Virus record (IMG/VR): IMGVR_UViG_3300030419_002087
Location: 1 to 64,000 of that record
DNA: 64,000 nucleotides
Strand: one strand, 5' to 3'
Origin: a virus
Shown here one piece after another: positions 1 through 64,000 of the stretch. The notes below the pieces were generated by a model, which worked only from the letters and a program-made list of their open reading frames with translations, ran no database searches and was not told where the DNA came from. The translations under genes were made by a program, and so were the position numbers. Positions within the stretch are counted from its first letter, which is position 1. Every line of letters starts with the position of its first letter.

Positions 1-1905
1 TATCTTGAAGGTGGTGAGAGTGTTTTTGGTTTTTGGATGGATGGTGATGATGAACAAAAACCTGTTGTTTTAGGTGTCTTTTATAGACATAAAATGGCGG
101 ATGATCAAAGAACACCAGTTAAAGGATCGCCAAGTGTTTCATCTTCTCAAGGTAAAGGTTGCACAACGAAGAAAGAAACACAAGAGGGTGTTGACAGTGG
201 AGCAAAAAAGGTATCCACTGGTAAGTATGTTCCAAAGGAAACATATAAATCTGGAAAGAGAGTATATGATCGATCAACAGGAACAATAAAAGGAACTTGC
301 CCAGAGAGATATCCTGTAAGTGATGAAGGTGGTTCTAAAGGTGTATCTGGTGCCGTTCTTGAACATCATTTCAATCTTAAAAGAAATACTAGTAGACCTA
401 GTTGTAAGAGAGATAATACTATTGCACAAATAACTGGATATCTTGGTGATTTTGCTGAACTCCTAATTGGTATAGAACAATATGCTGATTTTTATGTTGA
501 TGAGATTACTGGTGTTGTAAGAGATATTCAAGGTGATTTGAAAGCTATATCTAAAAAGATAGCTAAAGTTATAACGGGTAATATTAATCAGGTTCGAGAT
601 ACGATTTTCGCCTTTATTGGTGATAAGATATCTGGTTTCTTAAATTCATTACTACCAGAGGAATTGAAACCAATTCTTGGCCAAGGTATTAAGGGTGCAA
701 TGGATGTTATATATTGTCTCTTTGAAAATGTTATCGCATCTATATTCAATGTTGTATTTGATTTGCTTGGTGGGTTAGTAGGTCAGTTTATTAATGCACC
801 TCTTTGTGCTGCAGAAGAATTTGTTGGTGCTCTTCTTGGAACTGTTAATGGTTTTATTGATGATACAATCAGTCCTATCTTAGATACTCTTAGTGGAACT
901 CTTGGTGGTATTCTTGGTAGTATTTCAAATTTCGTTAGTAAGGCTTTAAACGTTGTTGGTTTGATTTATAGTTTCATCGGATGTGACGAATTCAAATGTC
1001 CTCTTCCTTCAAGATATGATACAGCATATGGCCCACAACAAGGATTAAGGAATAAAGTAGATAATATTACCAGTAAATTTGATATTGTACCTGATATGAA
1101 ATATGATAAGGATGGTAATGCTATTGGTACTGGTAACAAATTCTATGACAATATCGATAAGAATTTTGGAAATATTTTCAACCTAAAAGAATTAACACCA
1201 GAACAACAGCAAAATGCTGAAGATATTGCAGCTGTTGTTGGTGGATGTCAAACTGGCCTACTTAGATGTGGGCCTCCACAGATAGAAATTTTTGGTGGAG
1301 ATGGTATTGGAGGAGCTGCCAATGCTGTTGTTAGTGAATTTGGCCAAATCATTGGTGCTGATTTAGTAGATAAAGGAAGTGGATATACTGTTCCTCCATA
1401 TGTTAGATTTAAAGATGCTTGTGGTAATGGTAAAGGTGGTCGTGGTAGAGTTGTTATAAATGATGATGGTCAAATTGATAGAATTATAATAGATTATCAG
1501 GGATATGGGTATTATAATGATTTCAGAGAAATTAAAACCATCTATGGTGACATACTTCAAGATGTGACTATTCCACCACCTACTAGTGATGGTGAAACTG
1601 TTATCGGTGAAATTGAGGATATTTCAGTTGATCATAGTGGTAGTTCTTATGATGAAGACACAACTGTAGTTGCTGTACCTGATAATGGTTCTATATTGGA
1701 ACCTATCATTGTTAATGGTCATATCATGGGTGTTAATATAGTAGATCCTGGCAAAGGATTTACTACCATTCCTGATATAGAAATAAATAGCAGTACGGGA
1801 AATGACGCTGATTTAACGGCATCTCTCAAATTTAGGTCTGTCACTGAGGCAGATGCTATTGATCCTGACAAGGTTCTATTCGTTGTAAATTGTGTTGGTA
1901 GATAA
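1..1905 (+). CDS. gp5: Baseplate hub subunit gp5-like (5' truncated at window edge)
   Basis: Frame is open from base 1 (YLEGGESVFGFWMDGDDEQKPVVLG), matching the end of the gp5 OB fold. C-terminal GSGY/GxGF repeats are typical of cyanomyovirus gp5. Confidence 0.75.
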   Translation, partial: YLEGGESVFGFWMDGDDEQKPVVLGVFYRHKMADDQRTPVKGSPSVSSSQGKGCTTKKETQEGVDSGAKKVSTGKYVPKETYKSGKRVYDRSTGTIKGTCPERYPVSDEGGSKGVSGAVLEHHFNLKRNTSRPSCKRDNTIAQITGYLGDFAELLIGIEQYADFYVDEITGVVRDIQGDLKAISKKIAKVITGNINQVRDTIFAFIGDKISGFLNSLLPEELKPILGQGIKGAMDVIYCLFENVIASIFNVVFDLLGGLVGQFINAPLCAAEEFVGALLGTVNGFIDDTISPILDTLSGTLGGILGSISNFVSKALNVVGLIYSFIGCDEFKCPLPSRYDTAYGPQQGLRNKVDNITSKFDIVPDMKYDKDGNAIGTGNKFYDNIDKNFGNIFNLKELTPEQQQNAEDIAAVVGGCQTGLLRCGPPQIEIFGGDGIGGAANAVVSEFGQIIGADLVDKGSGYTVPPYVRFKDACGNGKGGRGRVVINDDGQIDRIIIDYQGYGYYNDFREIKTIYGDILQDVTIPPPTSDGETVIGEIEDISVDHSGSSYDEDTTVVAVPDNGSILEPIIVNGHIMGVNIVDPGKGFTTIPDIEINSSTGNDADLTASLKFRSVTEADAIDPDKVLFVVNCVGR

Positions 1906-2492
1906 TGGCAACAACTAAAGCTGATTTTGATCTTTCAATAAAACGTCATTACCGTGAGGAGGGTGGTCAAAATTCTCCTTATGGTAAGGTGATGTATCGT
2001 GTCCTTAGTAATCGTGGTAATGGCCATGGTTGGTATTGGAACAAGAAATCTGAAGATCATTACTTATCTGCAACTGGTGGTTCTTATGAATGCTTAGGTG
2101 GTAATATCCCAAAGGAAAGAACTAAGGGTGCTGATCCTCTTTATTGTGCAAAACTAATTCATTGTAAAAATGGAGATATTGTACTTGATGCTGATAATGG
2201 TGATATCATCTTAAAAGGTGATAATGTACTTATAGAAGCCAATGGAATAAAGAATACTGGTGATGGTAACTGCTTGATTGACTGCAATAATGAATTAAGA
2301 TTAGATGCTCCTCAAGTCAAATGTGAATCAACAGATCTTCGACTTTGTGCTTCTAAGGATCTGACTCTTGTTGGTAAGGTTTATGCCGAACTTATTGGTG
2401 GTACTGCTGCTGTGACACAGGCTGCTGACTTCGGTGCTTCAACTATAATAGGTAAAATCACAGCAATCGCAAAATCATTCGGATTTATGTAA
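1905..2492 (+). CDS. Baseplate hub/spike-associated structural protein
   Basis: Coupled to gp5 (TAATG overlap). Short beta-strand repeats (NGDIVLDADNGDIILKGDNVLIEA) resemble a gp5 C-terminal beta-helix. Confidence 0.5.
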   Translation: MATTKADFDLSIKRHYREEGGQNSPYGKVMYRVLSNRGNGHGWYWNKKSEDHYLSATGGSYECLGGNIPKERTKGADPLYCAKLIHCKNGDIVLDADNGDIILKGDNVLIEANGIKNTGDGNCLIDCNNELRLDAPQVKCESTDLRLCASKDLTLVGKVYAELIGGTAAVTQAADFGASTIIGKITAIAKSFGFM

Positions 2493-4233: not shown

Positions 4234-4236
4234 CCC

Positions 4237-4265
4237 TTGCCAAGGTGGGTATGTAGTGGTATTAT
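4237..4265 (+). promoter_or_regulatory. sigma70-like promoter
   Basis: TTGCCA-17nt-TATTAT with extended TG, upstream of a small ORF and the tRNA. Confidence 0.55.
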
Positions 4266-4556: not shown

Positions 4557-4706
4557 ATGACTTTAAGAGACTATATAGAAAGACCAAAAAAAGAATGGAC
4601 TGATAAAGATTGGCTGAAAGAAGCTTACATCATGGTTCATTCGCCATGGATTGATGATGAAGAACGAGAATACTGGAGAGATAAAATAAAAGAATTACAA
4701 AAATGA
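4557..4706 (+). CDS. Small hypothetical protein (49 aa, not in ORF track)
   Basis: MTLRDYIERPKKEWTDKDW...KIKELQK*, ATGA-coupled to the next gene. Confidence 0.55.
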   Translation: MTLRDYIERPKKEWTDKDWLKEAYIMVHSPWIDDEEREYWRDKIKELQK

Positions 4707-5317
4707 CTTATAAAGTTCCTTTTATTATAGAAGATAATTTTCTTCCACAAAATGAATTGGAAGATGTATGGACAGAAACTAAAAGTCTTTATAAAAATCT
4801 TAGGCCTGGATGGACTAGTAATCCAGCTACTAAAGATGGAGAGGTTTTAAAACAAAATTCTCATTTATTTTATCATGAATTTTATGGAGATGCATATAAT
4901 GAGTCAATTACATCAGAGATACTTATAAAGAGGATTATACACGATAAATTCTTAGATAAATTTGAAGATAGACTTGTAAGAGATTTAGCACAGAACATTA
5001 ACTGGCAAGGATTAATGTTGTCATATTATGATGATGGTGATAGTTATAAACCACATCATGATCAGGCTATGTTTACCGTTCTTTATTGGTTACATAAACA
5101 ACCTAAGAAGTTTAGTGGTGGTAAATTACACCTATATAATGATACGACTAGTTCAAATCCTGAAGCCTTTATTCCGTTTGAACCTAGACATAATAGAATA
5201 TTAATATTTCCCTCACCTTATATGCACGAAGTAACCCCAGTTACTTTGAATGAGGAAGATAGAAAAAAAGGATTAGGTAGATACTGCATTACTATGTTCT
5301 GCGGAATTCAACCATAG
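4703..5317 (+). CDS. 2OG-Fe(II) oxygenase
   Basis: YKPHHD (HxD), GGKL, FPSPYMHEVTPV (distal His), RYCIT (2OG-binding Arg). Confidence 0.88.
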   Translation: MTYKVPFIIEDNFLPQNELEDVWTETKSLYKNLRPGWTSNPATKDGEVLKQNSHLFYHEFYGDAYNESITSEILIKRIIHDKFLDKFEDRLVRDLAQNINWQGLMLSYYDDGDSYKPHHDQAMFTVLYWLHKQPKKFSGGKLHLYNDTTSSNPEAFIPFEPRHNRILIFPSPYMHEVTPVTLNEEDRKKGLGRYCITMFCGIQP

Positions 5318-8300: not shown

Positions 8301-11300
8301 GATAGTAGTATTAGTCCAACTGTTAACGAATTCAGTAATAGAAAGTATACTCAAGCTATTGAGAATTTATATCCACAATTTGATGGTGATAACTTTGTAA
8401 TGGATGCCTCTGCTGCATCCAGTTATGCTATTAATGATCCAGTTGGTAAGGTTGTAACTAACAGTTTACAGTACAGTATCACTAGAGAATTTGCTAACAG
8501 ATATATTAGATCATTTGGCCCAGGCATTGCGGTCACATATGCTGCAGGTTCTACTGCTGGTGTTAGTACCATCTATACAGACCGTGAACATAATCTGAAT
8601 CAGATAACTGCCGTAAGTATTGGTAATAGTGGTGTTAATTATGGTGCTGGTATTTCAACCACTCTTTATAACGCAACTCTATCATACGTTGGAGTAAGTA
8701 CTGGTGAAGGTGCTACTGCAAATATAACCATTGATGCTCTTGGTGGTATTACTGCTATCTCAATTGTTGATGGTGGATCTGCATACGGTGTTGGACATAC
8801 TCTTGAAGTTGTTGGTGTTCAGACTGCTGGAAGTCATACTCGTGGATGGGTTAATGTTACTAAGATTGCTAATAATATAGGTGATGCAATTGAAATAGTT
8901 GGTGTTGGTACTTCACTTGGTCGTTATACCAGTGGATATTGTGGAATCCATACTATTGTATCTCTAAAACCAAAAGAGGTTACTTATAATAACGGGTTCA
9001 ATCCAGGCGTTTATGATGTAAACACTGTTGGAATGGCTTCAGGCTTCATGTTATATGCAGGCCCTGTACCTCCAGTATCTACTATTTCATACTCTAGTGC
9101 TGCAACTGGAATTGCAACAGTTACTACTTCTGGGCCTCATGGATTAAATGTTAACAACCCATTTAAGATAGTTGGTGTTGCTCAGACAATTTATAATACA
9201 GAATCTATAGTTAATGAGAGAATAAGTACAACTCAGTTTAACTTCAAGTTTACTGATAAGGCTATTCCAGCAACTTATACTGCTGGTGGTAGTGTTATAC
9301 CAATTAACTATGGCCCTCGTGGTGGTAAGACTGAATCTGGTAATGAAAGGATTGCTCAGAGACTTGTTCCTTTCAGAACTGGTATTCAAACTTCAATGAG
9401 TGCCGCCTCAATTAACTCAACAACTACTACTCTTACTTTGGGTGATAGTTCTGGTTTCTATAAGGGTGACTACGTTCAGATTGATGGTGAGGTTATTCGT
9501 ATCTCCTCAGATTTCTCTTCTAATCAGGCAACAGTAATAAGAGGTCAACTTGGTTCTCGTTCTTCTGCACATGATGCTAGTTCTTTAGTTAAGAAGATTC
9601 GTATTATTGCTTCTGAGAAGAGAAGACACTCAATTCTACGTGCTTCTGGTCATACATTTGAATATGTTGGATATGGGCCAGGTAACTACTCAACTGGTTT
9701 ACCACAGAAACAAGATAGGATTCTATCAAAAGAAGAACAGTTCCTTTCTCAGTCACAGAACCCTGATGGTGGTGCTGTAGTTTATACTGGTGTTAATGAT
9801 GCTGGTGACTTCTACATTGGTAACAAAGTTATTAACTCTAAGGATGGTACTGAATCTACATTCAATATTCCAATTCCAACTGTAACTGGTGCTGATGAGG
9901 ATGCTGCAGGAGCTGCTACAAGATTAGATGCTATCTTTGATAGTGTAACTGTCAGGGAAGGATTATCAGTTGATGGAGATAATAATACAACAGTTAAGTT
10001 AAATGCTCCTACCACAATTACTGAGAAATTAACAACAACATCTGCTGATGGTGCTGAATTTGTTAAGATAACCATTAATGGTGGTTTACCAGAGAATAGA
10101 ACATTTACTTACTCTCCAACCAAACCAACAGGTACAGGAACTCTTGGAGATTTAACCTTTAATTCTAGTCCAAACTTTGGCGAATATCTTGGGTGGACAT
10201 ATACCAACCAAGGATGGAAGAGATTTGGTCTTATTTCTGCTGAGGCTGATTCAACAAAACTAAGTCTTGGTACTGTTGGTGTTGGTTCTACCAGTGCTAA
10301 TCGTATTGGTCAACAAAATGGTATTGATGTAAGAGGTACGATTGTTGCTGATGCTTTTGTTTGTGCTGGAATTTGTACTTTCTCTGGTTCAACAACATTC
10401 GCTTCTATTACCTTTAGTGAATTAACTGTTGGTGTTGCTACTGTTACTGGTAGATTGGATATTAATGGTGACTTTGATTGTGGAATTGCAACAGTTACTA
10501 CACTGAAATTAGCCAATAGTGATAAGATTTTGATGGGAGATAGTGATTTCCTTGAGATATATCATGACGGCAGTGATGCTTACTTCAAGAATACTGGTGG
10601 TACTGGTGGTCGTACTTATATTCAAGGCCCATCCAGCGGTGGTCAAGAGATGCGTCTACAGGCCAAGGCTGGAGAAGATGGTATCGTCATAAATGACGGT
10701 GGTGCTATTACAATCGGTCATGCTGGTAGTACCAAGATTGAGACAACTTCATCAGGTATTACTGTAACTGGTACAATTAATGGTTCTATTGAGTACTCCA
10801 ATGGTGTACTTACAGATACAGTTGGTTCTAATACTGATTATCAGGTAGGTTTTGTTACTGCTGCTTCTGGTACTTACAATAGACTCTTTATTGATTCTCA
10901 ATCTTCGGCATTCACCTATAATCCAAACTCAAATACATTGAGTGCTGGAACATTTAATGGATCTGGTGCAAGTTTAACTAATATTCCAAATAGTGCAACG
11001 ACAGCTACAGATAGTAACTCTCCTAACACTATTGTTGGTAGAGATGCTTCTGGTAACTTCTCTGCTGGTACTATTACCGCAACCTTGAGTGGTAATGCAT
11101 CTTCGGCTAGTTTGGTTGATGTTAATGCTAATAATACTACCAATGAAACTGTTTATCCAGTATTTGTAGATTCAACTGGTAGTGCTGTTCAGTTAGAAAG
11201 AGATACAGGATTGACTTATAATCCAAGTACTCAGATTCTAACTTGTACTACGGTTAGTGCTGGCTTGAATGGTATTGCATCAGAAGCTACTACTGTTAGA

Positions 11301-11778: not shown

Positions 11779-14700
11779 ATGGCATCAAATATTCGTTTTA
11801 AAAGATCCTCTGTTACTGGAAAATCTCCATCAGCAGTACAATTACCAATAGGTGAAATTGCAATGAACACCAAGGATGGTGTTCTGTGGATGCAAGAAGA
11901 AGGTGCTAGGATTTTAAATATTCGGGCTGGTTCCGCTCTAACGGCTGGTAGATTTATATACGTGTCTCCGCACGGTGACGATACTAATAACGACGGTAGT
12001 GATAGATTAAAGGCGAAGAAAACAGTTTCAGGTGCTGTAGCAATCAGTACCGCTGGTGATACAATTGAAGTAGCATCAGGTACATATGTAGAAGCAAACC
12101 CAATAGTTGTTCCTCCTGGCGTTGCATTGCAAGGAGAGGATTTACGATCAACCGTTCTTGTTCCGCAAACGCAGAATAAGGACTTTTTTCATGTCAACAA
12201 TGGGGTTCACTTTACAAACTTTAGTTTTGTAGGATCTGCAAGTACTGGTGCAGTTATTTCATTTGATCCAAATAGAGTAGGTGTTGTAACTCAGTCACCA
12301 TATGTTCGTAACTGTACTAATTTCATTCCTAATAGTATAGGATTGAGAATTGATGGTAACTTGAGAAGTGGTAATAATGGTGTTAACGGCTCTATGGTTG
12401 TTGACTCATTTACACAATACAACTTGAATGGTATAGGTGTTTCGATTACGAATAAGGCCTATGCTCAGTTAGTTTCTATATTCACAATTAACTCTGGAAC
12501 CAGTATTTTCTGTGAATCTGGTGGACAGTGTGATATTACTAACTCTAACTCATCCTTTGGTGAATATGGTCTTGTTGCTGACAATGTTAGCTTACTTCAA
12601 TACACAGGTATTACCTCAACTGCCTCTGGTATTGCTAGTGACCGTCTTCAGATTCAATTCCCAGTTAAGAATGTTCAGATTACTAACTTTGAATATGATA
12701 ATGTAACTGGTTACTCTACTGTAACTACAGAAGAGGATCATAATCTTAAAGTTGGTTATGGTGCTAGTCTACAAGGTATTGGATTTACATGTGCTGCTGG
12801 TTATGGCCAGACACATGCAGTTAGTGGTTTCATTTATAATGAAGCGACTGGTATTTCAACTATAACAACAGCTACCAATCACGGAGTAATTGGTGGTGAT
12901 CATGTTAAATTATCTGGAATTGCATTTACTTGTACTGGTTATGCTGGTGTAAGTACACATATATTCCCAGATGGTAGAAACGGATATCAATTTAAAGTTG
13001 ACTCTATATTGAGTAATACTCAATTTACAGTTAATGTTGGAACTTCTACGATTGCTCATACTTATTTGGAGAATGGTATTGTTAGAACTGGTATAACCAC
13101 TGACATTTACCCAAATCCAATTGGTGAGCCTGGAAAATCAGGTAATGTATATGATGTTATAGACATCCCTGGCGGTAATTACACTCACAAGTTTGTTTCC
13201 GCTGATGCAGGTGCAGTAACAATTAAAACTGGATCTGCTGCTGGTGCTGCTGTAACTGTTACTAATGCAACATATATTCCTGCTACTGGAGTATTGACAT
13301 TAGACTTTGTAGCTGCTCATGGAATGTCAACTAATGATCAGATTACTATATCTGAGGAATCATTATCATTTACATGTGCCAAAGATAATTACAAACATCC
13401 ACAAGCTTATCCACGGCCAGGATATGCACATACATTTGTAAGTGGCGTTACTAATGCCATTACGAAGAGTATTGGTGGAACAATTACTGCGGAAGCTGGT
13501 ACTGTTTATGACGGTGCAGCTGGTATTATGACAGTGACTTCTGCTAGTCATGGTTTATCAAATGGTAACACTGTTACCCTTGCAAATGATGCTGTTAAAT
13601 TCACTTGTTCCAAGGATTTACATGCAACTGAACATGATTATCCAAGAAACGGGATTGATCCTATTGCTGGAGTAGCAACAGTTGTTTCTAATTCACAGAC
13701 TAATACATTTGAGATTTTTGTTGGTAAGTCTGGAATAGCTGATCCTATTTGTGGGATCGGAACTACTGTTAATGTAACAAGTACAACTCAGTTAACCGTT
13801 AATTGTGGTGCAACACTACTTGATGCTAGAAAGTTTAACATCTATTCTGGTATTAGTACTGTTCCACATACATTTGTTCAAGCTGGAATAAGAACGGTTT
13901 CGGGATTTGTTCACGATCATCTTACTGGTTTAACTACTATTACAACCAGTCAACCACATCATTTGGCCGCTAAAAATTATGTAAGACTTGCTGGTATTGC
14001 TTTAACATGTACCGCTGGTATTAAAACATATCCAGATGGTAATTCTAGATTTGGTAGTGTCTTTGAAGTAACTGGTATTACTACTAATACCTTTACTGTT
14101 GATGTAGGCGTTTCGACTCTGGCCCACACATATGTGAGTGGTGGTACAGTAAGAAGAGCCGCAGCTTCAAAACTTTATGCTAACCGTCCTTATGATGGTC
14201 AAGTAGTTTATCTTGATACATTATATAAACAGTTAGATAAAATCGATGTAACATCGCCTGGTAGTGGATATGCTTCCCAGCCAACTGTTACTATTAGTGC
14301 CCCAGAAGGGGATAATGGTACGACTGCTACTGCTGAGGCCGTTCTTGAGAATGGAGCTATTAAGGAGATTAATGTAACCAATAATGGTTCACAATACGTT
14401 AATAATCCTTCTGTAACACTTACTGGTGGAAGTCCTTCGGTTTCTGCTGGTACAACTACTGGTATGCGTCCTCTGTATTATACAGTACAAGAGGCAACAC
14501 AACCTGACAAATACACTGGTATATCAACCGTTGTATTTGACCAAGTTCTTAATAATGCTATTGGTATAGGATCTACAGCATTCTTCTACCAAACAAGTCT
14601 CATCTTGGCCTCATCACACTCATTTGAGTGGATTGGTTCAGGTGGAGATATGGCTGGTTCAAGACCTAGACTTGGTGGTGTTGGTATTCAGTCCGCTGAA

Positions 14701-15235: not shown

Positions 15236-18200
15236 ATGCCTAAGTACATTTCAGGTAGAGTACCAGTTAATGCTCCTGGCGACGCCGGACTCTCTACAGA
15301 CAGACATACTTTTCTAGGATTAGAGGATGCAGAACCTAATCTAGGATTGGCTAGTGCAAATCAATCTGTTATCATAAGTGATACTACAGGCACAAGAGGA
15401 TTTTCAGATACACCTACTGTAACTGGTGTAAATGCAACGGGAATAATTACTGCAACTACAGGAATAATTACTACAGTCAATGCGGAAACGCTTGATGCTG
15501 GAGCGAATCTATATGCCCTTGCTGGTGTTGTAACCACCCTAACTGTTACAGATACAGTAGCTACGGCCTCTACTACCACTAATCTTACTGTATCAGGAAT
15601 CACATCTGTTAAGGATATTGTAGGTACATCTGGTACTATCACTAACTTAACATCCACTGACACTAATGTTAGTGGTGCTTTAACATCTGTTGATGCCACA
15701 TTTACTCGACTAACTCCTGAAGATACAGTCGGTACTGCTGCAACATTTACAGATCTTAACGCTACAAGATTTACTCCCACGGATACCGTAGGTACTGCTG
15801 CAACCTTTACTAATCTTTCACTTACCAATCTTGATGGTGGAGATGGTACTCTTAATATTCGTGCGAATATACTTGATACTCAGACTTTATATGGTGTAAC
15901 TGGTGTTGTTACTACCTTAACTGTTGCTAACCGTGTTGTTGTTAGTGGTGGTGCAACAGTTTCAGGGGCAATGACCGTCACTGGAAATACTCAATTCTGG
16001 GGTGGTATAAGAGATAAAGATGGACAAATAGGTGATGCAGGCCAAGTTCTTCAATCAACAGGAAGTCAGGTTAACTGGGTAAACACTCCTGCTGGTGGTA
16101 TTACAATTAAGGATGAAGGTGCTACTGTAGGTACTGCTGGTAGTGTTGTTATTGTCAACTTTGTTGGAACTGGAGTTACTGCCTCTGCTAGTGGTTTAGG
16201 TGCTACTATTACAGTAGATCAACTTGACAAGGCTAATGGTTTAGATAGTCAGGTTCAATATAATAATAGTGGTACATTAGGTGGTGCGACTGGATTTGTC
16301 TTTACAGATTCCAATAACTATGTTGGTATCGGAAGTACAAACCCACAAAGACAGGTAACTATCGGTGGAGATGGTACTGTTCATGGTAAGTGGTACACAC
16401 AAAGAACATATACAACTACCAATATTCCACTTGATGCCTTAGAATATGTTCCTAAGTCATATGTTGATGCTGTTCAGGCTGGTATCGTTGTTAAGGCTGC
16501 CGTATCTATGGCAACCACAGAGGCCATCAGTGCTTACACATATAATAATGGATTATCTGGTGTTGGTGCAAAGATTTGGAAGAATACTAATGGTTTAGGT
16601 GTTATTGATGGTGTTGACTTTACAGTTCAGGCTCGTGTTCTAGTTAAAGATCAAGGTGCTTCTGGTGTAGGTAATACATTTGAGAATGGATTCTATGAGG
16701 TTACTAGGGTTGGATCTGGATCAACTTCATGGGAGTTGCAAAGAACCAATGATATGGACGAACCAGACGAAATGGTTTCTGGTGCGTTCGCTTTCGTTCT
16801 TGAAGGTGCTAGAAACAGTGGTAATGGTTTCGTTCAGTTAACGAAAGAACCAGTTGCGATTGGTACTACTGCATTAGAATATACCCAGTTTACGGCGCCT
16901 GGACAGGTAGAGGCTGGTGATGGTTTACAGAAGACTGCCAATACTATTGATGTTGTTAGTGCTGATACTAATGCAATCTATATTACTCCTGATAATATTA
17001 ACTTAAAGGCTATTAACCCGTCGCAAAGTTATGTTTCAACGGGATCGACGCAATTTGTACAGGCTATTAGTGTCGATTCATATGGTCGGGTTACGGGTGT
17101 TGTAACGACGAATGAATATACTAAGGCCACCCAAGTAACTCATGGTGTCGTTAGGATACCAGCAGAGGCAAGTAGTGGATTAACGATTAATAGTGGTGAA
17201 ATAGGTCTAACGAATTGGCCAACATTCACGAACTTAAAAGTAACGGGTATTACAACTAACTTAGTTACCTCAGCTACTTCTAATACTACATCATCTCTTA
17301 CTGTTACTGGTGTTACTACTCATACTGGGGCTTCTAGATGGAGTGATAGTACTAAACTTCTTATCGGTTCAGATAACGACCTTCAAGTATATCATACAGG
17401 ATCAATAGCATATATTGATAATAATACAGGTAATTTATTTGTAAGAAATAATGTTGATAATGATGATGGTGGTAATATAGTAATTCAGGCTAAGTCTGGA
17501 GAAAATTCTATTGTTGCTAATGATGATGGTTCAGTTGATTTACATTATGATGGTGGTGATGCCAAACTCCAGACAATTGGATATGGTATTACTGTAAATG
17601 GAACTGCCTGGCTTGATGCAACTCAAGTTGGTGGTGCAGCCACGATTGGTGCTACTTTAGAACTACAGTCATTCCTGAAAGACTACTATAATCAAGTTGG
17701 TGCTGCAACATCAGTTCTTATTGGTGATGCTAATGGTACTAAGTGGGAGTCTATTGCGACTGCTGCATTACAAGGCCCTAAAGGACAGAAAGGGGAAGTA
17801 GGTGATAAAGGACAGAAGGGAGAAAAAGGAGAGAAGGGACAGAAAGGTGAGAAAGGTGAAAAAGGTCAGAAGGGTCAAAAGGGTGAAAAAGGTCAGAAGG
17901 GTGTTGATGGTGTAGATGGCCCAACAGGGCCCACCGGCCCAACTGGGCCCACAGGCCCAACCGGCCCAACTGGCCCTAAAGGTCAAAAGGGTGAACAAGG
18001 TGCAACTGGCCCAACTGGGCCAACTGGCCCCACTGGCCCTAAAGGACAGAAAGGTGCTCAGGGTGCAACTGGCCCAACTGGGCCAACTGGCCCAACCGGC
18101 CCTCAAGGTTCTAAAGGACAGAAGGGTGCTCAAGGATCTACTGGCCCAACAGGGCCAACCGGCCCTACCGGCCCAACTGGCCCAACAGGTCAGAAAGGAC

Positions 18201-19443: not shown

Positions 19444-20133
19444 TTGGACAATTTTATTCGTGAATACTTCATCAGGGATCCTGAGATCTGTGATGGAGTA
19501 GTTGATGCACTTGAAAAGTTGAAGGCTGCTGGTCATGGTAGGCCTGGCGTGTCTTATATGCCTGATGCTCCAGACGATTTTGATTTCAAGTCAGTTAAAG
19601 ATAGTTGGGATTTAGTACCTCCTGACTTTGCTAAGATGTATCCTAATGGCCCTAAGGAATTAAGGCTTGATGAGATTGCAGATGAGATGAATAATGAGTT
19701 ATTTCCAAGATATTATAAGGATATAGAGTTACATTTTAGAGGAGAATTATTCTCTATAAGACCACCTCAGTTTCAGATGTATGAACCTGGCGGTGGTTAT
19801 AAAGTATGGCATTGTGATGCCCAAGGTGTTATGATACATAGAGTGTTTGTTTATATTCTATATCTTAATGATCTATCTGATGGTGGAACAGAATTCAAAC
19901 ATCAAAATGTAAGAGTTAAAGCTGAGAAAGGGAAGGTACTTATGTTCCCTGCTAACTTTTGTTATATTCATAGGAGTGAAGTATCCCATACCAGTAAGAA
20001 GTATATTATGACTGGATGGATGGATACAGATCTTGTTGAGATGTTGACAGAAGAAAGTAGAAAAAAACCCGAACAAAAGTATGATCCTTACACACAACTA
20101 GCAAAACAACAATATAATGAGAATAAAAAATGA
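19444..20133 (+). CDS. 2OG-Fe(II) oxygenase
   Basis: QMYEPGGGYKVWHCD, YLND..DGGTEF, FPANFCYIHR, KYIMTGW; TTG start. Confidence 0.85.
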   Translation: MDNFIREYFIRDPEICDGVVDALEKLKAAGHGRPGVSYMPDAPDDFDFKSVKDSWDLVPPDFAKMYPNGPKELRLDEIADEMNNELFPRYYKDIELHFRGELFSIRPPQFQMYEPGGGYKVWHCDAQGVMIHRVFVYILYLNDLSDGGTEFKHQNVRVKAEKGKVLMFPANFCYIHRSEVSHTSKKYIMTGWMDTDLVEMLTEESRKKPEQKYDPYTQLAKQQYNENKK

Positions 20134-20861: not shown

Positions 20862-21409
20862 ATGGTGAATGGGCTATATGGAAAAAGGCATTTACAAAAG
20901 AGGAATGTCATGATATAATAGAACGAGGCCAAAAACTTGAAGTTGAAGAGGCCGATTTGGGAGCTCATGGTGATAATAAGAATAAAGAATATCGTAGGAG
21001 TCAAGTCAGATGGATGAATGAGGATCTATTTGAAGATATTTTTGATAAGATGTGGAAGATGACTATTAAGGCTAATACCCAATGGTTTGGTTTTCATATT
21101 GATGATTTAAGATATATGCAATTCACTGAGTACCATGAAAGTTATAAAGGAGAATATAAGAAACACCATGACGTTTTTTGGACTGAACCAAAACATAGAA
21201 AGTTATCTGTGGTATTACAACTAACTGACCCAGATACATATGAAGGAGGAGATCTCCATCTTACAGTTCAAGGAGAAAGACCTGCCTTTTATAAAGATCA
21301 AGGAACTGTGATCTGGTTTCCTTCATGGACTCCACACTGGGTAACTCCAGTTACAAAAGGTATTCGTAATAGTGTTGTTTGTTGGTTTGAGGGGCCACAT
21401 TGGAAATGA
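20858..21409 (+). CDS. 2OG-Fe(II) oxygenase (P4H/PKHD-like)
   Basis: QFTEY, YKKHHD, RKLSVVLQL, YEGGDL, FPSWTPHWVTPVTKGIRNSVV.W..GP.WK. Confidence 0.88.
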   Translation: MNGEWAIWKKAFTKEECHDIIERGQKLEVEEADLGAHGDNKNKEYRRSQVRWMNEDLFEDIFDKMWKMTIKANTQWFGFHIDDLRYMQFTEYHESYKGEYKKHHDVFWTEPKHRKLSVVLQLTDPDTYEGGDLHLTVQGERPAFYKDQGTVIWFPSWTPHWVTPVTKGIRNSVVCWFEGPHWK

Positions 21410-51600: not shown

Positions 51601-54600
51601 ATTGGATCAACTGCTGTTTTAACTGCTACTGTTGGTAATGCAGGTATCCACACATACAATGGTGGAACCTCATCTAACGCAGTTACTATTGGTAGTACTG
51701 CTAAGAATGTAACTAATGCCACGTATGATGCTATAACGGGTGAGTTGGTGATGACCATTGGTTCTCACACCTTTACAACCAGTGATACCGCTACTATCGG
51801 TGCGAACAAGTTATCATTTACATGTTCTGTTGATGATCATCAAACAAGTCATACATATCCTCGTGCTACTGACCCTGTAAGTGGTGTAGCCATTGGAATT
51901 CAGGCAGTATCAAGTACCACAATTACTGTTAATGTTGGTGCTGTTAGGGGTACTGTTACTGGTATTACAACTGTAAGTGGTGGTACTGGTTATTCCTCAC
52001 CAGACCCAGTGTTTGCTAAGGATATTCCAGTTGTATCAACAGCAGGAACAACCATTACTGTTAACGTAAATCCATCATATCCTGGCTCAATATATGAGCA
52101 TCAATATGTAAGTGCTGCAACAAGTGCTGTATATAATGGTGGTAATTACGTTCATACCTTTAAACCAGCATCTAGTTCCTTATCTGATGCAGTATTTACG
52201 GGTGGTGATTATAATCATAAGTTCGTTCGTGTATTAGGTAACGCAGTTAATGTACAAAGTGGTGCTGAATCTGGTAATCAGAAGACACCTAATAATGTTT
52301 CTTATGTGGCCTCTACAGGTGTATTGACATTAGAATTTGGTTCTGCACATGGAATGTCAACTAGTGATACTATCACTCTTGATGCTAATTCCATATTCAT
52401 GAGTTGTGAAAGAGATAATTATCAATCAGAACATGGTTATCCAAGATCTACTGACCCCATATCTGGTGTTACAACTGCGGTTACAGTAACTTCTAGCACT
52501 GCATTTACTATTAATGTTGGTTCATCACCTCAAGTTAACCATGCAATAACAACCTCAACTTACACTCCAACAGACGGTAATTTAGTATTAAATGTTGGTG
52601 CTGGACATCCATTTACTGCTCCAACATCTCATACTATTAGTACATGTTCATATAATCCTCATAATGGATATATGGACTTTGAGATAACCAGTCATGGATT
52701 CTCTGCTGGTGAATATATTCAAATTCCTGGCAATGCATTGACATTCACATGTTCAATGGATGGACATGCTACTCAACATACTTATCCTAGAACAGGTTCA
52801 AGAGACACCGATAGAATTGGCCAAGGTTGGTTGCCTATTGATCAGGTTGGTGTAAATACATTCCGTGTTTATGTTGGTGCTGCTAATGAAACTTCTGTAG
52901 GTGTTCATACTTTCGTAAGTTCTAAGGCTAATTCAGTTAATATAACAAGTGGTTCTGAATCTGGTAATCAGAAGACTCCAAATGCTGCAGATTATAATCC
53001 AGAAACAGGTATTTTAGAATTATCGTTTGCATCTAATCATGGAGTTTCAACTGGTGATACTCTTACATTAGATAATAGTTCTTTGACATTCACATGTTCT
53101 AAGGATAATCATGCAACTGAACACACATATCCTCGTGCGGCCGTAGATCCAATAGCTGGTGTTGGAACCGTTGTTACTAAGACATCTGACAAATCATTTA
53201 ATATATTTGTTGGATTGGCTGAGCCAGGATCAGTTGGAGTTCATACTTTTGTTAGTGCATCTGCACAGATTAAGAGAGCTAAGACTGTTATTGGTATTAA
53301 GACTGATTCTTTAGGATTTACATGTTCTCAAAATAATCATGGTACGGTTCATACATATCCTCGACCAACTGGTGATCCTGTTCATAATAGACAAATCGGT
53401 GTAGGTGCGACAGCTACTGAAACGGTTACTGTATTTGTTGGTATAACAACTGCTGAGTCATATCAAGTTGATAATGCTGATTATGATCAATTTGATGGTG
53501 ATCTTATATTATCAATTGGTGCAAATAATTTAACAACACCAACGGCATTCTGCCCAACAAAATCAATATATGATCCTACATCAGGAATAGTAACATGTAC
53601 ACAAGTTGGACATGAATTACAAACTGGTGACAAGATCAAACCTGGCCAAGGTACATTACAATTTAAGTGTACTTATGACGTTAGTGATGCATCTTACAAT
53701 CCAATAACAGGTGATCTTACATTAACTGTTGGTGCTGGACATGGTTTAGTTGCTGAAGTTGATAGTATCAGAATCCCAGAAAATGCATTGACATTTACTT
53801 GTGATTATAATGGTGACGGTAACACTACTCAGAAGACATATCCTCGTTCTTCTGGTGCATCAACATCTGATGGTGCTGACTATGCATACAACACAGATCT
53901 ACTAATCAAATCTGTTGCTAATACAACAATTACAGTAAATGTAAATGGTGGTCAAGGCCCAATTACAGACCTTACTACACATAACTTTGTTTCTGGTAGT
54001 ACTGTTAATCCAGCTGTTGTCTTTGGAACTAAGAAATATCCAAGATCAAGTGATCCTATTAGAGATCCTTTGAACAGACATCAAGGATGGATGCCAGTTA
54101 CTAGAGAAAGTAAAGATGAGTTTAGTTTCTGGTGTGGTACTTCTCCTAATACAAGTACACATACATTTGTAGCCAATGATTTCTTAACACCTACTAATGC
54201 GAATTATAATGGAGCTAGTGGTTTACTAACAGTTGAAACTAATGTAGATCACAAATTAGCAGAAGGTGATTTTGTTAAATTTGAGAAAGGTGCTTTCACA
54301 TTGAGTTGTGAAATGAATAATAATGCAACTACTCATGATTATCCACGTAAGACAGATCCAACTTACTTCCAATGGCTACCAATTTCTAATGTTGGGCCTA
54401 AGAATTTTGATGTAAGTGTTGGTACTTCTCCAGTTGGAATCTTAACAGTTTCCGCTGCAACTTATAACCCAAGTTCAGGAGCACTTGTATTAACCATGAA
54501 CAATCATGGTTTGAAAGTGGGTCAAGCAATTAGACTCTGTGCAAACTCCTTAATATTCACATGTAATTACAATGGCGATGGTAACACTACTGAAAAAACT

Positions 54601-59898: not shown

Positions 59899-59902
59899 GA
59901 AC

Positions 59903-62900
59903 ATGCCACAAGAGACAAACCTCAATGTAAGTCCTTATTTTGACGATTTTAATGAGGACAAGAATTTTAATAGGGTTCTGTTTAAGCCCGCTACGCCAAT
60001 TCAGGCTAGAGAATTAACACAATTACAATCGATTCTCCAAAATCAGATTGAAAGATTTGGACAACATTTCTTCAAAGAAGGATCTCAGGTTATCCCTGGC
60101 CAGATTGCTTATGACTCTCAATATAATGCTGTAGAACTTACTGAAAGTTTCTTAGGTATACAACTGACCAATTATATTGATCAATTAGTAGGTAAAACTA
60201 TTAAAGGTGAACAATCTGGTGTTGTAGCTAAAGTTGTTAATAATTTAACTGCAACTAAGTCCGACAGAGGAAATAATACTCTTTATGTAAAATATCAGAA
60301 GTCTGGTGATGATTTTGAGACCGTAACTTTTCAGGACGGTGAAAATTTAATCTGTACTAGTGATATTGAATATGGTAATACTAGAATTGTAGCTAATAAC
60401 CCTTTTGCTGCTTGTATTCCATCCAATGCATGTTCTATTGGATCTGCTGCTTCTATTGCGGATGGTGTTTATTTTGTTAGAGGATTCTTTGTAAAAGTAA
60501 CTGCAAATACTGTAATTCTTGATCAGTATACTAATGATCCAACATGTAGAGTTGGTCTGTTTATTAGTGAAAATTTAGTTACTGCTTATTCAGATGATAC
60601 ATTATTTGATAATGCATCTGGTTTCTCTAACTATGCTGCGCCTGGAGCTGATAGACTTCAACTTCAAACTACTCTTATAAAGAAAGATATTGATGAATTT
60701 AACGATGAGAATTTCGTTGAATTGATGAGATTGAAGAGTGGTAATATTGAAAAATTTGTAGAAAAGACAGATTATAATATTTTAAAGGATGAATTGGCCA
60801 GAAGAACATATGAAACTAGTGGTGATTATTATGTAAAACCTTTCCAAGTTAATATTAAGGAATCTCTTAATAATAGACAAGGAAATGGTGGTATCTATTA
60901 TAAAGATCAAAAAACTGCTGAAGGTAATGATCCATCAAAAGATTTGATGGTTTATCAAATGTCGCCTGGTAAGGCATATGTAAAAGGATATGATATAAAG
61001 AAAATTACTTCTACAAATATTGATGTAGAAAAACCAAGAACAATTAAGACTATAGAAAGTGATATAGTTCCTGTTGAAACAACATCTAGTGTTATTGTTA
61101 ATAATGTTTATGGATCTCCAAAAATAGGTTTTGGATCAACAGCTACAATAGATCTTTATACTGATAGAATTAATAGTGGTGGTAGTGCAAATGGTACATA
61201 TATCGGTAATGCAAAGGTATATGACTTTAAATTAGAGAATACTCCATATGCAAATGCTGCAACCAACTATGAAGTTTCATTATACGATGTACAGACATTT
61301 ACAGTATTAACAGTTAATACCGCACAAACATTATCAACTCCAATTTATGTGGAGGGTGCAAGAAGTGGGGCCTCTGGTTATCTTAAGAGTAATGTTAGTA
61401 GTAGTGTTTCTTTAACACTTACTGGTACTAAAGGAGCCTTTATTGTAGATGAACCACTTAAAATAAATGGAGTTCAAGAATCTGTTAGTGTAACTTCAGT
61501 TGTTGAATATGATTTTGGAGATGTTAAATCATTCCATCAAAATAATTCACCTAATGTTTTTACAGCTGACTTAGATCTTACAGAAAAATTCTCTATTGCG
61601 CCTCCAGGCACACAGTTTACAATAACTAGTGGTGGTACTGTTACGGTTCCTGGCAAGAGATTTGCTGTAGGAATTAAAACTGGTGATATTGTTTCATATA
61701 ATTTACAGAGTAATAGTGATATAACCTATAACAAGGTATCAGCATTGTCAGCTGATGGATCTACCATGACAATTGTTGCTTGCCCTCAAGATATTGCTGG
61801 GGTTTGTGATAAAGATCTACCAGGCGGTACTGTATCTCCAAGTGATTTTGGTATTGTAAAACCAGCTTTACGTAATGCTCAGAATTCAAGACTAACATCA
61901 AATTTACCTCAAAGGTTTATTTCTTCTGTTGATCTTAAAAATGCTCAACTTTTAATTAGAAAACAGTATGTTCTTAATATATCCTCTAAGAGGGGTACTG
62001 TTACTGTAGATGATCCAGATTTATTCTTCCAACCTTTTGATGAGGAAGATTATAACTTAACATATTCAGATGGATCGATAGAAACTCTTTCATCTCAAAA
62101 TGTTCAGTTTAACGCTGATTTTAAAACAATTACTTTACGAAGTTTAACTAAGACTTCTGATACTAATGCAGTTCTTGTTACCACACTTAAAAAGATAAAT
62201 GTAACTTCAAAAGCTAAAACTCTTTCTAAATGTGCAAAAGTAACATTTAATAGATCAAAACATGATTATTCTGGAACTAATACTACATCATTTAATAATG
62301 GATTAACATATAATGCAATCTATGGAACTAGGGTAGAAGATGATCAGATATGTTTAAATGTTCCAGATGGTCTTAGGGTTCATGCTATATTTGAATCTTC
62401 AGGAACATCAGATCCATCTTTGCCTGGAGCTACTTTAATTAATAGAAGTGATGCTTTAACAAATACAATTCAAGGTGAACAAGTTCTTGGTGTAGAGAGT
62501 GGTGCTTTGGGCCAAGTTGTATCTACAACTACTAGTACATTTGAAGTAGTTTATAAGAATGAATTTATCTTCCAAGTTGGAGAAACACTTATTTTCCAAT
62601 CTTCTGGTATAACTGGAGAAGTTTCTCAAGTTGTAGCTGGTGATAAGAATATTGGTGAAGATTTCCAGTTTGATAATGGAGATAGGAAGGAATATTTAGA
62701 TTATTGTAGAATTGTCAGAGAACCAACTGCTGATGAACCCAAGAAACGAATAACTGTTGTGTTTGACCACTATGTTGTTGATGCTGGATCTGGTGGAGAT
62801 GTAGTTACTGTAAACAGTTATCCTTCAGATGCCTTTGAATATGATTTACCAAAAATTCGTGGTAGAGCTGCTACTGATTTTGTTGATATTAGGCCTAGAG

Positions 62901-64000
62901 TAAAGGATTATAGTACAGGTGATAGTGACTCTCCATTTGAATATGATTATCGTGATTTTTCAAGTACTGGAGCAAGTGCTGCGAATATATTAGTACCTAA
63001 TGAGGCTTTAATTTTAGGTTATTCTTATTATCTGGGTAGAATTGATAAGATTCTTTTAAGTAGAGATGGATTCTTTGAAATTAAAAAAGGAGCTCCTTCT
63101 GAAAATCCTATAGCTCCAGATACTCCTACTGGAGGATTCTTAGTATCAACTGTATTCAATGCTCCTTACATTAGAAACGCTACATACGAATCTAATAGTA
63201 TTCTTTCTTCTCATAAGAGATATACGATGTTTGACATCGGTAGACTTGAGAATAGGGTTAAGAATATAGAGTTCTATACACAATTATCTTTACTTGAAAC
63301 TGAAACATCAAATTTAAACATAAGGGATGCTGGTACTGGTCTTGATAGATTTAAGTCTGGATTCTTTGTAGATAATTTTAGAGGACATGGTTCTCATTCT
63401 ATCTCACATCCATTATTCAAGGCATCTGTTGATAAGGCCAAAGGTGAATGCCGTCCTTCTCATTACACTACATCATATGATCTTTTAATTGGATCAGAAC
63501 AAGTTGTTGGAATTGGTACAACTGCCGATCCTAATGCTGATTTAACTCAGGTTTCTGATTTACAGTCCAATTCACTACAGAGAACAGGTGATGTTGTTAC
63601 TTTAAAATATACTGAATCTAAATTTATTGAACAGAAGTTTGCTACTACTGTTGAGAATGTAAACCCATTTGCGGTTATTAACTGGGTTGGTGTTATTACT
63701 TTAAGTCCAGCATCAGATACTTGGTTAGATGAAAAACATTTAGATGTTAATAATATCATCATGGAAGGTGAATACCAATCCTTGATGGCTGAATTAAATA
63801 TTGATCCTAATACTGGATTCTCTCCAATTGATTGGAATGCTTGGGAAGAAGATTGGAGTTCTGTAGATGTTTCTGAGAGAGAATTAGGCCAAAAAATAAC
63901 TGAAACTGATAGAAAAGTAGGTAACTGGAGTAGAGGATTTACTGAAGGTGGAGAACTTTTACCACCTATACATGGCGGACATATATCCAGAACTAGAAAA
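59903..64000 (+). CDS. VrlC-like/DUF4815 virion structural protein (3' truncated; not in ORF track)
   Basis: MPQETNLNVSPYFDDF...RVLFKP..PIQARELTQLQSILQNQIERFG, APGADR, LARRTY.TSGDY, RYTM.DIG.LE.R, DRFKSGFFVDNF; appears open to the window end. Confidence 0.85.
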   Translation, partial: MPQETNLNVSPYFDDFNEDKNFNRVLFKPATPIQARELTQLQSILQNQIERFGQHFFKEGSQVIPGQIAYDSQYNAVELTESFLGIQLTNYIDQLVGKTIKGEQSGVVAKVVNNLTATKSDRGNNTLYVKYQKSGDDFETVTFQDGENLICTSDIEYGNTRIVANNPFAACIPSNACSIGSAASIADGVYFVRGFFVKVTANTVILDQYTNDPTCRVGLFISENLVTAYSDDTLFDNASGFSNYAAPGADRLQLQTTLIKKDIDEFNDENFVELMRLKSGNIEKFVEKTDYNILKDELARRTYETSGDYYVKPFQVNIKESLNNRQGNGGIYYKDQKTAEGNDPSKDLMVYQMSPGKAYVKGYDIKKITSTNIDVEKPRTIKTIESDIVPVETTSSVIVNNVYGSPKIGFGSTATIDLYTDRINSGGSANGTYIGNAKVYDFKLENTPYANAATNYEVSLYDVQTFTVLTVNTAQTLSTPIYVEGARSGASGYLKSNVSSSVSLTLTGTKGAFIVDEPLKINGVQESVSVTSVVEYDFGDVKSFHQNNSPNVFTADLDLTEKFSIAPPGTQFTITSGGTVTVPGKRFAVGIKTGDIVSYNLQSNSDITYNKVSALSADGSTMTIVACPQDIAGVCDKDLPGGTVSPSDFGIVKPALRNAQNSRLTSNLPQRFISSVDLKNAQLLIRKQYVLNISSKRGTVTVDDPDLFFQPFDEEDYNLTYSDGSIETLSSQNVQFNADFKTITLRSLTKTSDTNAVLVTTLKKINVTSKAKTLSKCAKVTFNRSKHDYSGTNTTSFNNGLTYNAIYGTRVEDDQICLNVPDGLRVHAIFESSGTSDPSLPGATLINRSDALTNTIQGEQVLGVESGALGQVVSTTTSTFEVVYKNEFIFQVGETLIFQSSGITGEVSQVVAGDKNIGEDFQFDNGDRKEYLDYCRIVREPTADEPKKRITVVFDHYVVDAGSGGDVVTVNSYPSDAFEYDLPKIRGRAATDFVDIRPRVKDYSTGDSDSPFEYDYRDFSSTGASAANILVPNEALILGYSYYLGRIDKILLSRDGFFEIKKGAPSENPIAPDTPTGGFLVSTVFNAPYIRNATYESNSILSSHKRYTMFDIGRLENRVKNIEFYTQLSLLETETSNLNIRDAGTGLDRFKSGFFVDNFRGHGSHSISHPLFKASVDKAKGECRPSHYTTSYDLLIGSEQVVGIGTTADPNADLTQVSDLQSNSLQRTGDVVTLKYTESKFIEQKFATTVENVNPFAVINWVGVITLSPASDTWLDEKHLDVNNIIMEGEYQSLMAELNIDPNTGFSPIDWNAWEEDWSSVDVSERELGQKITETDRKVGNWSRGFTEGGELLPPIHGGHISRTRK

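Follow-up and report, generated by a model that had tools for sequence, protein, structure and literature searches.

The described systems closest to the one considered here come from viral metagenomes. Cytosine C5-methyltransferases (C5-MTs) of metavirome phages, paired with TET enzymes, 'mainly recognize a GpC[C/T] consensus' that was new to REBASE; one clade acts on GpC[C/T] only and another is inactive on GpCA (Burke et al. 2021, PMC8256090). The follow-up preprint considers it improbable that marks limited to GpC protect a genome throughout its length (10.1101/2023.12.21.572611). On marine viral metagenome-assembled genomes (V-MAGs) the commonest modified motif is RGCY (nine V-MAGs), followed by CCNGG, GGWCC and GGHCC; these motifs were called N4-methylcytosine (m4C) by single-molecule real-time (SMRT) kinetics and are concentrated in Myoviridae-like genomes, and these V-MAGs carry on average 2.2 methyltransferase genes (Hiraoka et al. 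2022, PMC8919816). Here we analysed a 64,000-bp stretch of DNA, in the following termed the window, which is the first part of the 118,934-bp contig of a T4-like marine cyanomyovirus, a phage infecting cyanobacteria (IMG/VR record IMGVR_UViG_3300030419_002087). In this contig several short palindromic sites beginning with C are retained almost exclusively where a neighbouring base places their outer cytosine in the word GCY, which suggests a protective DNA modification.

With phage C5-MT/TET/glycosyltransferase hypermodification the contig shares the word GpC[C/T], read here from a footprint only, as well as the type of source, namely marine metavirome contigs with T4-like genes (PMC8256090). 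It differs in that no C5-MT or TET was found, neither here nor in four complete relatives obeying the same rule, the cyanomyoviruses S-8S55, S-CAM9, S-PRM1 and S-SSM7. The V-MAGs modified at RGCY resemble it as marine myovirus-like genomes with a GCY-containing word, but in our contig position −2 relative to the site is free, so that the word is GCY and not RGCY, and no methyltransferase was found in the lineage (PMC8919816). As in the restriction-site avoidance of phages, short palindromes are lost by synonymous changes; here, however, avoidance of C-initial sites is conditional on the neighbouring base, and copies adjacent to G occur at neutral frequency. A literature search, with the supplements of PMC8256090 and PMC8919816 lying outside it, revealed no description of such flank-conditional avoidance.

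Genes were called as non-overlapping longest open reading frames (ORFs; 128 genes, 93.7% coding) and are not a curated annotation. As null model synonymous codons were permuted within each gene, which preserves the codons, with 100 shuffles for the window and 300 for the contig. A site preceded by G or followed by C is termed flanked; unflanked sites have the form H...D (e.g. HCCWGGD). The sequence-only reading of the window had claimed that CCWGG occurs only as GCCWGG or CCWGGC, that CCGG occurs only as GCCGG or CCGGC, and that Gly-Pro pairs are never written GGWCC although Gly is otherwise GGT or GGA. All three claims were borne out by counting. The window contains 62 CCWGG sites (27 GCCWGG and 40 CCWGGC, five being both), all of them flanked, and no HCCWGGD against 52.4±4.3 expected (lowest shuffle 42). 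Each of the 18 CCGG sites is GCCGG or CCGGC, and HCCGGD is absent against 39.1±5.3 expected (lowest shuffle 26). GGWCC is likewise absent (57.0±3.9 expected, lowest shuffle 45), and both GGSCC (75 vs. 23.7 expected) and GGCC (179 vs. 79.6 expected) are in excess. Thus, in a count that preserves codons, unflanked sites are zero and far below every shuffle. The entire contig gives the same picture: HCCWGGD is missing among 109 CCWGG sites (88.7±5.7 expected, lowest of 300 shuffles 74), HCCGGD among 31 CCGG sites (63.9±7.5 expected), and GGWCC does not occur (86.9±5.4 expected).

Each of the nine H..D flank pairs is zero for CCWGG as well as for CCGG. The constraint concerns position −1 (or +1) only, with positions −2 to −5 being free; at −2 the 117 oriented sites have T 29, C 42, G 27 and A 19 times. 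Protection specific for GGCC or RGCY was rejected for this contig, as position −2 is free. A flank on one side suffices, as 101 of the 109 CCWGG sites in the contig are flanked on a single side.

The codons of the window genes follow this pattern. Although 86% of the Gly codons are GGT or GGA (GGT 1110, GGA 548, GGC 179, GGG 88), all 59 Gly-Pro pairs are written with GGC (41) or GGG (18), and in each of the 64 Pro-Gly pairs Gly is encoded by GGC, the codon before ends in G, or both. The examples quoted earlier from near positions 14255, 16895 and 60640 are indeed present, at 14257, 16898 and 60641 (Table 1). In the contig, 95 of the 109 CCWGG sites encode Pro-Gly, a frame that makes CCNGG unavoidable. 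In the two unforced frames flanked CCWGG was found 10 times against 12.9 expected and unflanked CCWGG not at all against 20.1, and the four non-coding CCWGG sites are all flanked. Because the count in unforced frames is near neutral, flanked CCWGG appears to be tolerated and not merely the lesser evil. The earlier proposal of a conditional rather than a simple avoidance therefore holds.

The rule is not restricted to these sites. A scan of all palindromic 4-, 5- and 6-mer cores with each of the four flank letters ranked G first for CCWGG and CCGG and brought up CTGCAG in addition. At least seven site types in the contig, and eight in S-SSM7, share the rule of a G before the first C. CTGCAG is present in the contig nine times flanked and never unflanked (17.7 and 17.8 expected); all four window copies are flanked, and HCTGCAGD is zero against 10.4 expected. 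The corresponding contig numbers (flanked/unflanked) are 4/0 for CCATGG (5.0/8.4 expected), 2/0 for CCTAGG (1.9/5.4 expected), 8/1 for CCTNAGG (6.6/10.6 expected), 9/4 for CCANNNNNTGG (9.2/30.8 expected) and 32/8 for GCGC (38.4/30.2 expected). For GCGC the codon-shuffle figures are preferred, because flank p-values from a flank-free null are inflated by coding context. The non-palindromic CCAAGG and CCTTGG do not follow the rule: 24 of the 45 CCWWGG sites are unflanked, and none of these is CCATGG or CCTAGG. A paired-nickase model, in which a frequent HCC-type nicker produces breaks at inverted pairs, was rejected on these numbers.

The rescuing word is GCY (GCC, GCT) and not every GpC. Since the rescued C of GCTGCAG is followed by T, GCC alone does not describe the word, and the inner GpC of CTGCAG, a GCA, gives no rescue. 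In relatives CTCGAG is likewise rescued by GCT. A GCA flank was equally without effect in S-SSM7, where flanked CAATTG (34.0 expected) and flanked CACGTG (5.8 expected) are both absent. Palindromes whose sole GpC is GCA or GCG are purged from the contig (GTGCAC 0 vs. 8.7 expected, TGCGCA 0 vs. 4.9 expected). No evidence for rescue by GCG was obtained from CGCG, which is low both flanked (2 vs. 13.0) and unflanked (6 vs. 26.3). Among 6-mer palindromes an observed/expected ratio below 0.25 was found for 0 of 11 with an inner GCY, 4 of 7 with GCR only and 10 of 40 without GC (Mann-Whitney p 0.018). The GpC context proposed by the sequence-only reading therefore stands for GCC and GCT and has to be given up for GCA. 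Other palindromes are simply avoided: TTCGAA (32.9 expected) and GGTACC (19.0 expected) are absent from the contig, as are CGATCG, GACGTC, GTCGAC, CTCGAG and CGTACG; the loss of GGWCC and GTGCAC is of this plain kind too. Several of the purged palindromes (TTCGAA, GGTACC, GTGCAC, CGATCG and others) are recognised by enzymes of cyanobacteria.

Other cyanomyoviruses obey the same rule, with the sites differing from phage to phage. S-8S55, S-CAM9 and S-PRM1 do not avoid CCWGG or GGWCC; they keep 22, 37 and 32 CCGG sites, respectively, none of which is unflanked (137, 118 and 110 unflanked expected). CTCGAG occurs six times in these three genomes together, always flanked, and their flanked CCANNNNNTGG is neutral with unflanked copies depleted 1.8- to 5-fold. 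The idea that phages of the S-8S55 type carry the 'ghost' of a lost modification was considered unlikely, as their G-flanked CCGG contexts, compared by eye, are partly shared and partly private, with none unflanked. S-SSM7 has 196 flanked and 10 unflanked CCWGG sites (199 unflanked expected), and flanked/unflanked counts of 27/0 for CTGCAG, 5/0 for CTCGAG, 18/0 for CCTNAGG and 13/1 for CCANNNNNTGG; CCATGG is less strict (18/3). All 10 unflanked CCWGG sites of S-SSM7 overlap GGWCC, and thus an overlapping second site seems to rescue too. P-SSM4 shows the rule at CCATGG only (5 flanked and 0 unflanked vs. 5.4 and 18.4 expected). Neither purge nor rule was detected in the podoviruses Syn5 and P-SSP7. 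Most of the 44 helicase loci that measure at least 9 kb, out of 79 returned at a helicase identity of about 50%, do not avoid CCWGG.

These counts lead us to assign a probability of roughly 0.7 to the view that the virion DNA bears a post-replicative base modification at 5′-GCY-3′. The mark would sit on the C of GCY or on the G paired with that C, and when present at the outer C:G pair of a palindromic site starting with C it would prevent cutting, a mark on a single strand being enough. Nucleases with Type II-like palindromic specificities would have eliminated CCWGG, CCGG, CTGCAG, CCATGG, CCTAGG and GGWCC wherever unprotected, together with almost all CCTNAGG and CCANNNNNTGG lacking protection, and protected copies would be subject to neutral drift. 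Where a dipeptide makes a site inevitable, it has the protected form, which is CCW-GGC or G|CCW-GGN for Pro-Gly and GGC/GGG-CCN for Gly-Pro. We infer the chemical mark itself, its nature, the selecting nucleases and the writer enzyme. Rescue by overlapping modification is supported as by far the best reading of the footprint, and the position of the unflanked CCWGG sites of S-SSM7 within GGWCC fits it. Of the earlier suggestion, that the phage modifies its DNA and has purged only unprotected sites, the protective mark is upheld by the neutral number of flanked sites and by one rule for at least seven site types; the enzyme system itself was not seen.

Several observations weigh against a GCY mark. 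AGCT (279 vs. 428 expected), AAGCTT (16 vs. 39) and TAGCTA (11 vs. 24.6), which all contain GCT, are depleted in the contig; this shortfall may stem from a general deficit of AAGC/GCTT, the most depleted 4-mer of the contig in a Markov test. Flanked CCGG is 1.7- to 3.4-fold below expectation in S-8S55, S-CAM9 and S-PRM1. S-SSM7 lacks CCGG completely (0 vs. 52 expected), so GCC gives no rescue there. In 80 gp41 loci from IMG/VR (713 kb pooled) 75 of 102 CCGG and 459 of 568 CCWGG sites are unflanked, and hence the rule is not general in cyanomyoviruses. Finally, searches of 144 kb of the lineage and of the four complete relatives obeying the rule turned up no established family of DNA-modifying enzymes.

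The 144 kb comprise the contig, of which CheckV estimates a completeness of 60%, and 25,036 bp by which a second IMG/VR contig (G001, 116,397 bp; 98% identical along the greater part of the alignment, with blocks of 89.5–99.7%) reaches upstream of its start; about 55 kb of this genome are unassembled. One alternative for the writer is a GpC[C/T]-specific C5-MT encoded on these 55 kb, with or without TET and a glycosyltransferase, which would write 5-methylcytosine, 5-hydroxymethylcytosine (5hmC) or glycosyl-5hmC at GCY. GCY is the specificity of clade IIa and related phage C5-MTs; T4 capsid, clamp-loader and HSP genes are found on the same contigs, and the glycosyltransferase is at times joined by a nucleotide-sugar epimerase (PMC8256090). 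The window, too, has an NAD epimerase gene beside three 2-oxoglutarate/Fe(II)-dependent (2OG-Fe(II)) oxygenase genes (Table 1), and the incomplete contig would leave room for such a cluster. Nevertheless, we consider this origin unlikely. Neither PF00145 nor a PCQ-type motif was found in the 118,934 bp of the contig (about 60% complete) and the further 25,036 bp of the lineage, nor in the complete, rule-obeying S-8S55, S-CAM9, S-PRM1 and S-SSM7, and PF12851 (TET) gave no match at E≤1 in the incomplete contig or these four phages. None of the seven window oxygenases, which belong to PF13640/PF13759, matches Tet_JBP. Scans of IMG/VR and the JGI metagenomes revealed no contig above 78% identity that extends past gp41. 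In this lineage a C5-MT/TET cluster may lie in the unassembled part, but the complete relatives would be left unexplained by it.

Searches for other writers were equally negative. PF00145, PF01555, PF02086, PF12851 and PF01702 have no match in the incomplete contig, S-8S55, S-CAM9 and S-PRM1, and the first four of these families are without a match in S-SSM7 as well. In the same records and G001, the motif (D/N/S)PP(Y/F/W/H) is missing from ORFs longer than 120 aa, and phmmer with 12 methyltransferase queries gave no hit; for G001 the analysis comprised PF00145, motif scans and phmmer. In S-8S55, S-CAM9 and S-PRM1 none of the searched kinds of DNA methyltransferase came up. A regular expression for S-adenosylmethionine (SAM) motifs was given no weight, since it was too narrow and missed known methyltransferases of P-SSM4. 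Pfam analysis of 20 ORFs from the 25 kb upstream part of G001 and 20 window ORFs revealed purine synthesis genes, ThyX, PhoH, gp59 and gp32 and no methyltransferase. 7-Deazaguanine at GGC, considered with phage CAjan in mind, was rejected, no TGT or QueC having been found: PF01702 (TGT/DpdA) is missing from the five records searched, our own genome being incomplete, and PF06508 stays under its cut-off in five records, the one match being of 16.2 bits in S-SSM7. The sequence-only reading was therefore right that no methyltransferase is visible in the window, a negative that now extends to 144 kb of the lineage, but the C5-MT/TET/glycosyltransferase origin that it favoured is so far unsupported. 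The cluster of C5-MT, TET-JBP and glycosyltransferase genes that it advised looking for elsewhere in the genome was not found in the contig or G001, about 55 kb being unassembled.

S-SSM7 has one amino-methyltransferase-like ORF (NC_015287.1, positions 110353-111057, 234 aa) with a SAM-fold-like motif I and a GNPPH (NPPH-type) motif, which has no relative in the other genomes compared. It is a possible writer of a GGWCC mark, to which the 10 overlapped CCWGG sites point.

A further alternative is a GCY mark set by a host enzyme that is common to marine picocyanobacteria and passes its mark to all progeny phage. It would then be no surprise that a phage methyltransferase is missing from S-8S55, S-CAM9 and S-PRM1. 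This alternative appears quite improbable, as of 121 host-family genomes sampled only 10 have PF00145 and 28 have PF01555, with none of five marine Synechococcus genomes having PF00145 (figures for these families only). In addition, purge and G-flank rule are both missing from 400 kb of a marine Synechococcus chromosome, and HTVC008M, a phage of an unrelated SAR11 host, has nine flanked and one unflanked CCGG in 41 kb. Podovirus Syn5, which infects the same host strain as S-SSM7, is uninformative on this point. Three of the 121 genomes (G025, G085, G114) have 10 to 20 PF01555 matches each, spread over many small contigs, which may be viral contigs binned with the metagenome-assembled genomes or reflect methyltransferase-rich hosts.

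There is also very little to be said for unmodified DNA and nucleases that themselves refuse an outer G:C pair, their true sites being HCCWGGD, HCCGGD, HCTGCAGD and the like. A single deviant half-site could stop a dimeric enzyme, which would explain the sufficiency of a one-sided flank, and a missing writer gene would be no surprise. However, no fewer than seven to eight unrelated specificities would have to share the same odd 'not G' rule, which is not credible as a nuclease property, and we know of no enzyme with a recognition site of this kind. Moreover, the overlap of all 10 unflanked CCWGG sites of S-SSM7 with GGWCC and the failure of GCA where GCC and GCT rescue would be left unexplained. 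There is practically no chance that codon usage, CpG depletion or mutation bias produced the pattern without nuclease selection: CpG is depleted genome-wide (about 0.54 of the composition expectation) and coding context alone flanks half of CTGCAG and 56% of GCGC in shuffles, but no shuffle comes near zero (lowest 74 HCCWGGD), the effect is all-or-none, strand-symmetric and palindrome-specific as seen for CCWWGG, and rare codons are recruited to meet the rule.

For the GCY mark proposed here, a writer was sought among hypothetical proteins of S-8S55 that are conserved across the rule-obeying genomes. The leading candidate, which we name tentatively, is a DruA/Mom-like protein of 383 aa with a GNAT fold, encoded between clamp-loader genes outside the window (Table 1). 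It matches PF14236 (DruA/DUF4338) with 38.1 bits (cut-off 27, E 1.3e-9) over residues 101-200 only. Identity to the homologues of S-8S55 (gene at 117917-119068), S-CAM9 and S-PRM1 is 87%, and to that of S-SSM7 61%; the gene is absent from P-SSM4, Syn5 and P-SSP7. The protein has a loop with the invariant residues Q168, G171 and G176-G177. It was found in 31 of 50,697 phage records (25 Synechococcus phages, three Pelagibacter phage records and three others). At least 6,767 metagenomic relatives exist, PF14236 being present in 120 of 120 relatives listed, and PHROGs classes the protein as unknown function. The homologue of S-SCSM2R is annotated 'methylcarbamoylase mom' (PMC12801897). Directly upstream of the gene, in the clamp-loader operon, lies an ORF of 192 aa (contig positions 108045-108623, outside the window) with weak phosphoribosyltransferase matches to PF00156 and PF14681, both under the cut-off.

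An AlphaFold2 model from a 42-sequence alignment reached a predicted local distance difference test score (pLDDT) of 88.7; with 20 close sequences the pLDDT was 48.5 and the model unusable. Foldseek returned GNAT-type enzymes only. In the VIA comparison all 50 matches listed were GNAT proteins (Z 9.5–8.8), with Mom of phage Mu (PDB 8bv8, chain 8bv8_B) tied at the top (Z 9.5, root-mean-square deviation 3.5 Å, 165 residues aligned). A profile search of the PDB gave chance-level matches only. The candidate thus shares the GNAT fold with Mom; the two are 10% identical where they align, and the 383-aa protein has extra helical parts. Mom modifies adenine at N6. The target that the footprint points to in our contig would be the G:C pair in GCY and not adenine.

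Presence of the gene goes along with the footprint in many genomes, and this tracking is suggestive only. Where the gene is present, CCGG counts (flanked/unflanked) are 31/0 in our contig, 22/0 in S-8S55, 37/0 in S-CAM9 and 32/0 in S-PRM1 and, in 41 kb each, 9/1 in HTVC008M, 4/0 in DSL-LC02, where the rule shows weakly, and 1/0 in S-SCSM2R; S-SSM7 has 0/0, with the rule visible at other sites. Where it is absent, the counts are 0/0 in P-SSM4 (18.9 flanked expected), 0/0 in 41 kb of P-SSM3 and 1/0 in 41 kb of DSL-LC03. These phages are related and the counts are not independent. Some findings speak against the candidate as writer. The tie of Mom is within one Z unit of ordinary GNATs (SpeG, NatF and others). 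S-SM2 has a 47% identical homologue and no rule (CCGG 5 flanked, 9 unflanked), P-SSM4 lacks the gene and nevertheless shows the pattern at CCATGG given above, and seven IMG/VR loci with 45–52% homologues have no rule, although the sites are not purged there either.

A wider version of this view is that a subset of marine T4-like phages (cyanomyoviruses, HTVC008M), which lack a conventional methyltransferase, may mark GCY by means of a replisome-linked DruA/DUF4338 GNAT enzyme, a distant Mom-like transferase of the acyl type acting on the G:C pair, and that SMRT sequencing could register a mark of this type as 'm4C'. We regard it as doubtful. According to it, the genomes would have co-evolved with the sparse mark, each restriction-type site being either purged or placed under the mark.

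Table 1 Positions of exemplary sites and of genes discussed in the text (window and contig share position 1)
Feature	Positions	Strand	Remark
CCTGG in Pro-Gly pair, preceding codon ending in G (TCG CCT GGT)	14257..14261	+	rescued example
CCTGG, preceding G (GCG CCT GGA)	16898..16902	+	rescued example
CCTGG, preceding G (GCG CCT GGA)	60641..60645	+	rescued example
CTGCAG, G before (GCT context)	809..814	+	G-flanked
CTGCAG, G before	8542..8547	+	G-flanked
CTGCAG, G before	9904..9909	+	G-flanked
CTGCAG, G before	52985..52990	+	G-flanked
CCATGG, G before	2024..2029	+	G-flanked; remaining window sites 4644, 26296 likewise G-flanked
CCTNAGG, sole unflanked copy of the contig (ggcCCTAAGGaat)	19651..19657	+	exception to the rule
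2OG-Fe(II) oxygenase	4703-5317		PF13640/PF13759
2OG-Fe(II) oxygenase	19444-20133		PF13640/PF13759
2OG-Fe(II) oxygenase	20858-21409		PF13640/PF13759
2OG-Fe(II) oxygenase	24646-25356		PF13640/PF13759
2OG-Fe(II) oxygenase	32472-33125		PF13640/PF13759
2OG-Fe(II) oxygenase	33122-33694		PF13640/PF13759
2OG-Fe(II) oxygenase	33691-34437	-	PF13640/PF13759
Glycosyltransferase, GT25+PLOD type	21400-23286		adjoins oxygenases (window)
Cytidylyltransferase/cupin	20130-20861		adjoins oxygenases (window)
NAD epimerase	29590-30309		beside three 2OG-Fe(II) oxygenases (window)
DruA/Mom-like GNAT-fold protein, 383 aa, between clamp-loader genes	contig 108610-109761		PF14236; outside window
DruA-like homologue, 50% identity, after DNA polymerase gene	within the 41 kb of Pelagibacter phage HTVC008M (NC_020484.1) 79535-120656		T4-like, SAR11 host

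Besides the oxygenases of Table 1, two further 2OG-Fe(II) oxygenases are encoded in the upstream part of G001. Just upstream of the helicase gene the window encodes a homologue of staphylococcal nuclease (SNase, PF00565) of 153 aa (25644-26105, + strand), which may serve the breakdown of host DNA. A protein of 250 aa (38673-39425, + strand) belongs to no Pfam family; it is 88% identical in S-8S55, the proteins of S-8S55 and S-SSM7 share 75% identity, and it falls into PHROG 1574 (unknown function) with a weak match to a glycosyltransferase PHROG. Across the tail-fibre and baseplate region the contig shows about 75% nucleotide identity to S-8S55, S-8S56, S-8S53, S-CAM9 and S-PRM1. Contigs from 20 of 24 listed public runs (11 studies) contain a 10-kb test stretch wholly or in part; the runs are labelled as marine, seawater, plankton or sponge metagenomes, except three with a coded organism name.

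The rule forces the coding of each Pro-Gly and Gly-Pro pair, and this explains the odd codons in the collagen-like and fibre genes. Sequence alone thereby reveals a probable modification motif, GCY, and points to an anti-restriction role. The footprint suggests a genome reshaped in such a way that a sparse mark suffices, which is the opposite of the doubt expressed in the preprint cited above (10.1101/2023.12.21.572611). The conditional rescue of purged palindromes by their flanks offers a chemistry-free way of predicting modification motifs, applicable to any phage genome. With S-8S55, S-CAM9, S-PRM1 and S-SSM7, cultured phages that follow the rule and have no recognisable C5-MT, TET or DpdA, material for finding the writer enzyme is at hand. 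If a DruA-like protein were indeed the writer, this would represent a new class of DNA base modification, and it would hint at what DruA does biochemically in the bacterial Druantia type I defence.

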